A stretch of DNA of 61,056 nucleotides, the filler included, from Rhabdomonas costata (taxonomy: Eukaryota), in NCBI GenBank assembly GCA_019059605.1. It is 19 parts of 19 records of this genome, joined end to end, with 100 filler letters (N's around TTAATTAATTAA, not from the genome) between each part and the next. Parts side by side here need not be neighbours in the genome. Positions count along the whole stretch, not along the records: positions 25,772 to 28,889 come from JAHMHO010001346.1; 18 more parts are not named here. The stretch is one strand, 5' to 3'. Positions 22,119-29,158 of this stretch are shown one piece after another (within the stretch, counting starts at the first letter, position 1; every line of letters begins with the position of its first letter). A program made the position numbers and the translations under genes. The notes under the pieces are model-generated. The model was not told the origin of the DNA. It ran no database searches and saw only the letters and a program-made list of their open reading frames with translations.

Positions 22119-22455
22119 GAGGATCTCGAAAAATGTTTTCCCACGTTGCCCTGGTATGGCCTTTTCGGTGTGCTGACGGACGCTGGTGTTCCACCTACCC
22201 TGGTGGGTTGCTTGCGGAGCTTTTACAACAGTCTACGTCACCAATTCCCTTTGGGCCAAGTGGATGGTTCCTTGTGGGCCACGGGCAACGACCTCGCCCA
22301 GGGTTGCCCAGCGAGTCCTGATCTGTTGAATTTCATTTTCGAACCTTTTCACCGCTGGGCCGCCGCTCAGTCAAAAGGTGTCTTCGTCGCTGGTCAGTGG
22401 ATACCTTCGGAAAGCTTTGCCGACGACGTCACCCTGCTGGCCACTTCTCTCGAGG
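22119..22455 (+). mobile_element. Non-LTR retrotransposon reverse transcriptase fragment (5' truncated, runs off contig)
   Basis: RT motifs in order: DLEKCF..L.W, LAQGCPASPDLLN, FADDVTLLATS. Confidence 0.9.
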
Positions 22456-25480: not shown

Positions 25481-25776
25481 GGCCAGCTGTGAGGCGGTAG
25501 AACACGCTGGACTATTACATAAAACCTTCCCCGGTCAAAGCAGGACGCTGGTCTACGTATTTACACAAATCAGTGTGTGGTCCTTGCCGCCCATGCCACG
25601 AAATGTGGGTGACGGTCGCTTGGCATATTTGTGGAGAACAAAAAACACCAGCACAGAGCGGCCCACAACCCNNNNNNNNNNNNNNNNNNNNNNNNNNNNN
25701 NNNNNNNNNNNNNNNTTAATTAATTAANNNNNNNNNNNNNNNNNNNNNNNNNNNNNNNNNNNNNNNNNNNNTGTTG

Positions 25777-25920
25777 TGTGTAATCATTTTTTCGTGTAAT
25801 CATTTTTTCGTTTTTCGTTTCAAGCTCTCATGCCATTGTGGAGCGAGAAACGAAAAACGAAAAAATGATTACACGAAAAAATGATTACACTCAGTAAAAA
25901 CACGAAAAAATGATTACACG
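25777..25920. repeat. Contig-terminal fold-back over three GAAAAAATGATTACAC direct repeats
   Basis: Arms at about 25777-25821 and 25846-25889. The 16-nt unit occurs three times on + between 25859 and 25919. Confidence 0.85.
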
Positions 25921-26186
25921 CAGTCGTGTTTTCAGGCGTTGGGGGCGCAACCTACTACCGGCACAGCCGCGATGCTGCCGAGAAAAAAATTTGTGGGAAA
26001 TGTTTTTGCCGGCAAACGGCTTTCAAGTTCAGATGCGCAACATTTTATCCCACCAATAATATGTACGTGTTGGGGCCAAAATTTTCGGTTTTTCGATCCT
26101 CGGAAAGTGGAGGCCGAACGCGCCCATCACTTTCGCCGGTAATGCCTTTATGAAATGGCCAAAGTGTTCGGGGGACCACCCACGTC

Positions 26187-26893
26187 TGGGGTAATTGTTG
26201 TCGTAACCCCATTGCCCGGGATGGAATCAGGGGCTAGAAGGGGTGTATTGGGGAATCCCCGCGTCCGATATGCCCTATAGGCCGGGCCTTTACCCGGTTG
26301 GACCATGGCATGCCAGGGTGTCCCCAAGGGCCCAGGGCCCATCTATGGGCAGGACCCCACCGCAAGTGGGGGAGGGTGTGTGCCTGATGCTGGGGTGAAG
26401 CTGCGGAAGCGACGCTCGATCGGGCCGCTTGGTTTCGCGCCTTTGCCGCCGAAAGTCCCCCGTGCGTGTGGCCCCGAAGGGTACCCCGAACCCCTCAAGG
26501 CCCCGGGGCACCAGTTGTGCCCACCCAAAAGGTGGGGGCGCGGTGCACGATGCTATGGGTTTCGGGCGCAAGGCGCGGCACCAGCCCGGACCGGCAAGCG
26601 GTAGGTGCTGTACGCGGGCGTGTTACGGCGTGTTACGTGGGACGGAAGCCCCAAGATGTCCTATGCGCGCTTGTGTTGGCGGAATGGCCGGGGTTATAGG
26701 ACCCGAGGCAAGCGGAACGGGGTATTCTGCCATATCTGATAGTGCATCTGGTGGCTGCTAAGTTGGTTTTCTTCTTATTGGGCAGGTTTTGGTGCACAAC
26801 CGCAGTGTCTTCCGAGTGGAGGGGGTTGGCGTATCAACAGCATCCGGCTTGAACAAGGCTACCCGCAAATGCCGGTGGTTTTAAGTCTCACTT
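26187..26893 (+). ncRNA. Candidate highly structured RNA or non-autonomous retroposon body (unidentified)
   Basis: GC-rich, no exon-like signals, with nested long-range helices and many hairpins (detailed in findings). Followed directly by a hexamer tail. Confidence 0.4.
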
Positions 26894-26939
26894 CAAGTCC
26901 AAGTCCAAGTCCAAGTCCAAGTCCAAGTCCAAGTCCAAG
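26894..26939 (+). repeat. (CAAGTC)7 + CAAG tandem repeat
   Basis: Perfect hexamer array read directly. Confidence 0.95.
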
Positions 26940-27678
26940 GCCTTCTTCATGCCCTTTCTTATTGCATCGCCAGCAAACCCATGTGCAGAAAAAACAACAG
27001 CTTACGATTCGGATTGTTGACAAAATTTAGAAAATCTGAAGGGATTATCTTCACGACGATTTTGGCTAAAGATGAAAGCCAATCGGCACCGGAAGAATTT
27101 TCGGCTTTTCTCATGTACGAAAACAAAGTACGGGCAAAAAAAGGACTGCAGCTTCAATTGAGTACTAAGTTTGACAAGGGCAAAAAGAAAAGGAGGCGCA
27201 GAACTGCCTGACGTACCCTGTAGGATGGAGACAGGTGGGCGGGCAATGTCAACGGCATAAAAAGGAAGATGAATCACCGGAGGGCCTGCGCCAGAACACC
27301 AGCTAACCAGCTAACCAACACCACTGTCCCACCCTCTGCAAAGTCGGCTCGGCCGTCGGGTCAAGCCCCCAACGAATCCCAGCAGCTTGTTGGTGCGAGT
27401 CGACAACGAGCAGATCCACAATATAGGAAGGAGCGTTTGAACCCCCGAGCCCCGCATGCATCCCTCCGTTTGCCGTTCCACGAAGCAAGCGGTAACCGAA
27501 GGGGCATGAGGGCCAAAGAGAGAATTCAATACTCACTACTCCATGCTCACAGCTATTTACACACTACCAATGCGGTCCCTAAGGCACTTCTAGGGAGTCA
27601 CCGGGAACTAACATGCCACCACTAGTTCGTTCCAACGCGGAACGGCAAAATAGGGGACCAACGTGGAGATGATAGTCA

Positions 27679-28846
27679 TCACTTCCCCCCACAGGGTGGC
27701 ACCACCTCCTCCACCGTGAAGAGAAGGCCATTTCGGGTGCCCTTCAGCACATCCTCGCGGCCGAGACTGTGCGGGGGAGCGGCCTCAGAGACCGCGACCG
27801 CCACATTATCTTCCGCGCCCGGAGGAGCGCCCGAGCGCAGGCTAGCCTCGGTGAGAAGGTAGACTCCGGTGACTCGGAAGGTGAACCCCGATGGGAGCAG
27901 CACCTCTTCCTCGTCGGGGTAGTATGAGAAGTCCCTGATGGGCCGCCCTTGCCGTAGCCGCAGCCGAAACACTACGGATAGCTCTGACTCCTGTGGGAAA
28001 ATGCGAAAAAGGGATTTGGTCCCGATCGCAGCGGGTCCCTTTTCAAAACTTTTGGACCAAGCCAGAAGAACGGAAAATATGGTGAATTTCTTAGTCAACG
28101 GTCCAGAAGACAATGCCAATGAACACACGCTTTTGCAAATGATGCAGGTATGTGGTTCAATTGTGTGCATGCCAAACTTGTAAGCAAACTTGTAAGCACC
28201 AGCATGCATTGTTCGAAAAGTGTGGACGATGACAGCAAAAATCTTGGCAAAAGAGGTCAAAGATGACACCCACACTATTCCAGGATTAATTTGTAACATG
28301 GGTAACACAGCGAAATAGGGGCCTGAATAACAGGGTTCAACAGGACATCACATTTTAAATCTGAATCGGTTGATTGACATACTGGCATATTGGGTTTGAC
28401 ATATTGGGCCCACAGACTCAGCACACAAAAAGAAGAACAAGGCAATCAATTCCCAAAAACACCTTGCCGGCTTCCTGTGAGGCCTTGCAGAAGGAGCGGG
28501 CCACCCGCAAGGAGGTGGACGTGCTGGAGAATGCCGGCCATACCGAGATCCTCGAAGCGCAGGGCTCTGCGCTCTCGCTGACGAGCTGCTGCACCATGCG
28601 GTCAAAGTCCTCCTTCCCAAGCCGAAGGCCGCGGAAAGTCAGCCCACACCAATTCGGAGTCATGCGCTCCAGCGCTCCCTGGAGGCACCAGATGTAGTCC
28701 CTCCACATAGAGATCCCGGCCTCCTCCTTCTTGTCAAACCACGCTCGCAGAGCCTTGTTCACCTCCACGTAAATGGCAGTCTGGAGAGTGTAAATATGGA
28801 TGCTGAAGATGTCCACGGGGGCCATTGGGACCTTCCCTTCTGCCAC
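27679..28846 (-). CDS. Mono-ADP-ribosyltransferase domain (ARTC, R-S-E clade); last two exons
   Basis: Exons 28846-28463 and 27990-27679 with a phase-0 GT-AG intron. Motifs: IHIYT....IY..VN..LR, TFRG, WPAFSSTS, FSYYPDEEEVLLP..FTFRV. Confidence 0.9.
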
Positions 28847-29158
28847 CTGAAAATAACCCGCACCCAGCGCCCAGCAGTAAAAAAGCAAANNNNNNNNNNN
28901 NNNNNNNNNNNNNNNNNNNNNNNNNNNNNNNNNTTAATTAATTAANNNNNNNNNNNNNNNNNNNNNNNNNNNNNNNNNNNNNNNNNNNNTGTTTTGCCCA
29001 CCTCCTGAGAGTGCCCTCGCCGCAAAAAAGGGGACGGTAGAAATCTCCATCAAAAGCGAAGATTTGAGGACGACTCGTTCCTTGTTGGTCCAAATTCCAC
29101 CAGGAGGGGGACCACGTAATCCTTTTTCCTCACCTTCTTTTCCTTTGGTTGGGTGCAG

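Follow-up and report, generated by a model that had tools for sequence, protein, structure and literature searches.

We read the segment at 26187-26939 of the window (the whole 61,056-nucleotide stretch of Rhabdomonas costata DNA under analysis) as what is left of a non-LTR retroposon of low copy number, possibly an RTE-like one: its 3' end, decayed and 5'-truncated, lying on the + strand. We give this reading about even odds (roughly 0.5). An earlier note had taken the segment for an undescribed large structured RNA, be it a SINE-like element or LINE 3' region or a cellular ncRNA; since its folding proved no better than that of shuffled sequences and Rfam offered no relevant match, the structured-RNA part of that proposal falls, a tRNA-headed SINE is unsupported, and a LINE 3' region or related retroposon is left as the best, if unproven, reading. 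Should the retroposon reading be true, the element is one more dead retroposon scrap, and what would be new is only its (CAAGTC)n tail and possibly an RTE-like family in this protist. A full-text literature search returned no paper joining CAAGTC with a retrotransposon, and a search of titles and the starts of abstracts returned no RTE-like family in this protist.

Anatomy and setting of the element

The window strings together 19 unrelated contigs, each about 3.1 kb long, with an N44-TTAATTAATTAA-N44 linker, and as this artificial linker recurs every ~3.2 kb, neighbours across the N runs are unlinked; the element lies on the contig at 25772-28889. Pfam matches to myosin, TCP-1, eIF4E and SAM domains, together with a GT-AG intron in the window, show that the source is a eukaryote. 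The element has a GC-rich core (26251-26720, +; GC 0.67), which ranks first among the 1008 windows of that size in the whole 61 kb, has no intact ORF and is likely a decayed retroposon body. It is followed by a segment of 50% GC (26721-26893, +), a putative 3' UTR with a chance-level fold, and then directly by a tandem array at 26894-26939 (+). The (CAAGTC)7 tail described earlier is real, with seven perfect units at 26894-26935 plus CAAG (7.7 copies), and is the only perfect hexamer array of at least five units in the 61 kb. The array is flanked on its left and on its right by an in-register unit matching CAAGTC in five of six letters, so that sequence does not settle its direction. A small hairpin is predicted just 5' of the array at chance level (z 0.07 and -0.62), and no second copy of the element was found in the window.

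The element's contig carries three further features. At its left end (25772-25925) lies a near-perfect palindrome with 16-nt subrepeats, which scores z -16 in the 120-nt folding scan described below and whose miRNA-family Rfam matches all fall below the gathering score; contigs of all three sequencing runs introduced below leave it with several different flanks, which makes it a dispersed repeat, and a fold-back artefact could account for its outer left arm. On the - strand, a 472-nt phase-0 GT-AG intron (28462-27991) separates two exons at 27679-28870 that match ART (ADP-ribosyltransferase) in Pfam; over 28774-28847 a contig of run X3 shows 11 differences, which suggests a paralog of this gene. 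A lysine-rich open stretch after an AG at 27031-27211 (+) is possibly a last exon, and has no Pfam, Atlas or codon-model support.

The earlier statement that the element holds no credible ORF stands, with no frame reaching the Pfam cut-off and no clear host-like codon signal. A codon model of the host, which had identified the correct frame for 16 of 17 held-out pieces, scored no frame above +0.9 in nine windows from 26253 to 26762. Pfam and protein comparison found no APE endonuclease or reverse transcriptase ORF on the 3.1-kb contig, Atlas look-ups of two open frames gave scores below 0.8 or nothing, a zinc finger could not be shown with Pfam or Atlas, and exact look-ups found 0 of 3. In favour of the retroposon reading, another contig of the window carries a LINE reverse transcriptase (RT) fragment of another family, unrelated to the element (22122-22454, +; cut by the contig end), which has 123 mostly unnamed relatives at up to 77% identity; many of these are endonuclease-RT-RNase H proteins of 1,800-1,970 aa, and G-x-x-T or a PPT-like tip closes most of the 14 C-termini inspected. 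The element had no match in this RT family (120 proteins).

Motif, tail and versions of the 3' third

Within the GC-rich core, one + frame holds the motif W-x-E-x6-D-R-x2-W (26391-26432), of the kind seen near the C-terminus of RTE-type LINE proteins; we spotted it by eye before testing it and treat it as a lead, not as proof. The 61-kb window holds its strict form a single time, within the element and on the strand of the tail; this form is found neither in 833 kb of unrelated loci nor in any of 5000 shuffles, 25 of which contain a looser form. The host codon model gives the frame carrying the motif scores of -7.6 to -11.3. For comparison we fetched and translated 87 contigs with an RT motif. 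The RTE reference set is narrow, its 179 segments reducing to 12 non-redundant ends, of which seven were used and five dropped as BovB-like or rearranged. The strict motif is present in 2 and the looser form in 4 of these 12 ends, and the complete RTE-type copies L193, L237, L238 and L250 have short repeats at the stop. In the element about 460 nt separate the motif from the tail, whereas the fetched RTE proteins run on for no more than about 20 residues past the motif. Among the loci collected (L181-L267), many prokaryotic genome records turned out to contain contigs that carry LINE reverse transcriptases of eukaryote type, BovB-like copies included, which points to contamination; scans of viral contigs for the RTE motif yielded 0, 1 and 0 confirmed cases.

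In two local profile searches the best + match ends on or just past the motif, and frameshift-aware profiles are equalled by 136 of 2000 and by 31-50 of 1000 shuffles (p 0.03-0.07). A five-sequence HMM did not place the element among its best 20 domains of 2442 tiles, and an ungapped full-length test was matched by 850 of 5000 shuffles with the best-placed query and by 2923 of 5000 with the best of seven. For a target-site duplication (TSD), about 7-15 bp long in RTE-clade LINEs, the only candidates are two 7-nt matches, a result that 2617 of 5000 shuffles also give; the duplication of an old copy could have been lost. With the profile, ungapped, database and TSD tests weak or negative, an RTE origin is only a lead, and one whose odds we put clearly below even. 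The tail agrees with the available parts of two accounts, according to which RTE-clade LINEs end in microsatellite units, some of them hexamers such as (GATGTT)n (PMC6007223), and RTE elements and their SINEs have such ends (PMC6007223; PMC3747384).

The history that we infer for the element, including its mechanism, age and clade, would run as follows. A full-length LINE elsewhere would have been copied by target-primed reverse transcription that began in its 3' repeat. Copying would have broken off early, so that no more than the tail, a short 3' UTR and the last part of ORF2 (about 26250-26720) was retained; the truncated copy would then have picked up stops and frameshifts, and its hairpins would be a by-product of 67% GC. 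A tRNA-derived SINE was set aside, as the element has no tRNA and its A-box-like word (26677, +) and B-box-like word (on the - strand only) are not properly arranged with respect to what we take to be the consensus boxes.

Searches for relatives were negative throughout. Scans for (CAAGTC)n arrays covered at least 119 loci (80 with wide flanks) and 61 loci, and among the 180 matches listed none resembles the element or matches the LINE proteins tried (best blastn E 0.054); the metagenome collection has no exact match to the UTR-tail junction, and neither that collection nor the (CAAGTC)n loci gave an alignable homolog. Plasmids and phages gave no match to the element, phmmer against 1.84 billion representatives gave 0 matches, and a word search gave 0 of 476 candidates. 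These blanks, the lack of a TSD beyond chance, the many unrelated settings of (CAAGTC)n arrays and the marginal or negative RTE profile tests all speak for a plainer origin, in which the GC-rich DNA downstream of the ADP-ribosyltransferase-domain gene is ordinary intergenic or locally duplicated sequence and the microsatellite grew by slippage; the variants would then be alleles, a small duplication or amplification errors. We consider this explanation somewhat unlikely: the strict motif is missing from every shuffle, the sole perfect hexamer array of its length follows the most GC-rich block of the window, and the 3' third has at least three versions, one of them more divergent than its flanks.

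These versions come from three runs (X1, X2 and X3) of one sample, none of which is recorded as RNA and which have no bearing on expression. The X1 contig spans 25861-26883 and reads G/C/C at 26696/26725/26778, unlike the window, whereas X2 contigs have both letters at 26696 and 26725 and only the window's letter at 26778. Record 9 of X2 (26556-26695) has six other letters (four listed) plus a 10-nt gap in 130 aligned letters, the gap corresponding to one copy fewer of a 10-nt duplication. Measured against the X2 flank pieces, which have five differing letters in 733, this divergence has P 0.013 for the four listed sites and 0.0003 for all six, and record 9 is likely too divergent to be an allele. 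By these comparisons the 3' third (26556-26883, unstranded) would exist in at least three versions in one sample, and probably at a second locus; with that many versions, one of them an unlikely allele, the element is probably a low-copy repeat. The loose contig ends of the runs carry GT-rich adapter-like sequence, presumably an amplification adapter, and because all versions come from one sample with such ends, some of the variants could be due to chimeras, polymerase errors or alleles. Contig depth toward the array, which is not copy number, rises in X2 (4.7, 17.9, 46) and is flat in X1, and coverage holes, which prove nothing, lie on both sides next to the stretch in X2 and over most of it in X3.

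The placement of the variants also bears on the possibility that the array is the (GACTTG)n tail of a right-hand element on the - strand, beside a GC-rich block that comes from some unrelated repeat (a fragment of an LTR, DNA transposon or other element). The in-register unit on either side of the array would allow this; we judge it improbable, since the multiple versions sit to the left of the array, where the RTE-like motif also reads on the + strand, and of the two listed contig pieces to the right one shows 0 differences and the other one letter plus five gap letters.

Folding and the RNase MRP-like 10-mer

A real structured RNA gene or structured SINE, with the long interrupted stem at 26430-26583 as its core, for instance a very diverged RNase MRP-type RNA, is quite improbable on the folding evidence. 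All 16 strings named in the earlier note are present at or within the positions given for them, so the helices it listed exist as strings; as structure they are at chance, with 7 of the 12 below 0.3 pairing probability. In the + ensemble, the outer helix 26253/26727 reaches a pair probability of at most 0.11, CCTATAG/TTATAGG and CGTGC/GCACG 0.00 each, the helix 26584/26619 0.01, the helix 26844/26875 0.00 in its named register, and the hairpins at 26355 and 26337 0.15-0.27; the three central helices (mostly 0.84-1.00) and the hairpins at 26520 and 26280 are well supported. The minimum free energy of the whole element gives z +0.71 on the + strand and +1.24 on the - strand, being equalled by 14 of 20 and 18 of 20 shuffles, respectively, and a 120-nt scan found no window within 26172-26931 below z -0.86. 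Counts of local elements are equally ordinary: 67 Watson-Crick stems of at least 6 bp against a shuffle mean of 76.2, three hairpins of at least 6 bp against 1.5 expected (42 of 200 shuffles reach three) and one tetraloop hairpin against 1.6 expected. The central stem, which has no strand preference, is the sole part that folds somewhat above chance and, like the GC island around it, speaks for a structured RNA. Taken alone it scores z -2.3 (+) and -2.9 (-); with window choice corrected for, 13 of 60 (+) and 3 of 60 (-) shuffles match it, and it stands out weakly, on the + strand no more than on the - strand.

The G-U pairs that the earlier note had read on the + strand do not indicate a strand, because the + strand is G-rich (G 0.37, C 0.30) and its shuffles also fold better (-324 kcal/mol against -287 for the - strand). 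Nor do the variants favour a conserved fold: among the seven listed sites, 26725 breaks the claimed outer pair, 26696 turns a pair into a wobble, and none is compensatory. At gathering score Rfam returned no match, and a search at E up to 10 added only four sub-threshold matches in the element, all of them unrelated. The words that we take to be the hammerhead core and the telomerase template were both absent from the element, in agreement, for the hammerhead, with the earlier note. Also set aside were an rDNA spacer, Rfam having found no rRNA on the contig, and a euglenid non-conventional intron, for which CAG/CTG words are present without an evident flanking exon. Nested helices are what 67% GC gives, and the lesson is that helices nested by eye in such DNA call for a shuffle control.

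One feature within the stem, a 10-mer at 26451-26460 (+) noticed after the fact, resembles what we take to be the CR-I consensus of RNase MRP RNA; it occurs in 71 of 20000 shuffles and once in the 833 kb control, a rarity close to that of the loose RTE motif and in itself a caution against motif spotting. No GGGGCT, which we take to be the consensus of CR-V, the element that closes P4, lies downstream of 26460 on the contig. Segment 26187-26890 contains no hairpin with a GARAR pentaloop (P8), and in place of a six-nucleotide CR-IV before the 3' strand of P2 there is only an AG..A word at 26706, after the putative P2 strand; both features belong to RNase MRP RNA in the available part of a description of it (PMC13184271). 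With these other features absent, the 10-mer is likely a chance match, and we do not assign the element to RNase MRP RNA. It is highly improbable that the GC island (about 26245-26735) holds a genuine RNA gene around the stem, in the extreme case an RNase MRP-type RNA that has diverged strongly; if true it would matter, given that a 2006 survey, in the part available and based on Leishmania and Trypanosoma, gives no P or MRP RNA in Euglenozoa (PMC1636426).

Comparison with known systems

Compared with RNase MRP RNA, as far as the available parts of two sources describe it (PMC13184271; PMC1636426), the element has the CR-I-like 10-mer inside a GC-rich block with pairable ends; it differs in the GARAR pentaloop, CR-IV and CR-V and in having no Rfam match. 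Stringent LINE/SINE pairs with shared 3' tails, in the portion of their description available (PMC3747384), resemble the element in a non-poly(A) repeat tail and in a small hairpin predicted before the array, which here is at chance level, whereas the element has neither a tRNA head nor properly arranged A and B boxes. From RTE-clade LINEs the element differs in that its contig holds no RT or endonuclease, its motif lies about 460 nt from the tail, no TSD was found and its profile match is not significant overall; it has in common with them (BovB, plant RTE and schistosome-type) and with their 5'-truncated remnants a tail of short tandem units (PMC6007223, available part), and with the RTE-clade copies L193 and L237 the motif W-x-E-x6-D-R-x2-W. 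The octopus element RTE-2_OV, likened to it by description and not by sequence, is an RTE with a C2H2 zinc finger, a domain not shown in our element, and with UTRs of about 600 nt, as given in the available part of its report (PMC9115989), so that a long stretch between RT and 3' end does occur within the RTE clade.
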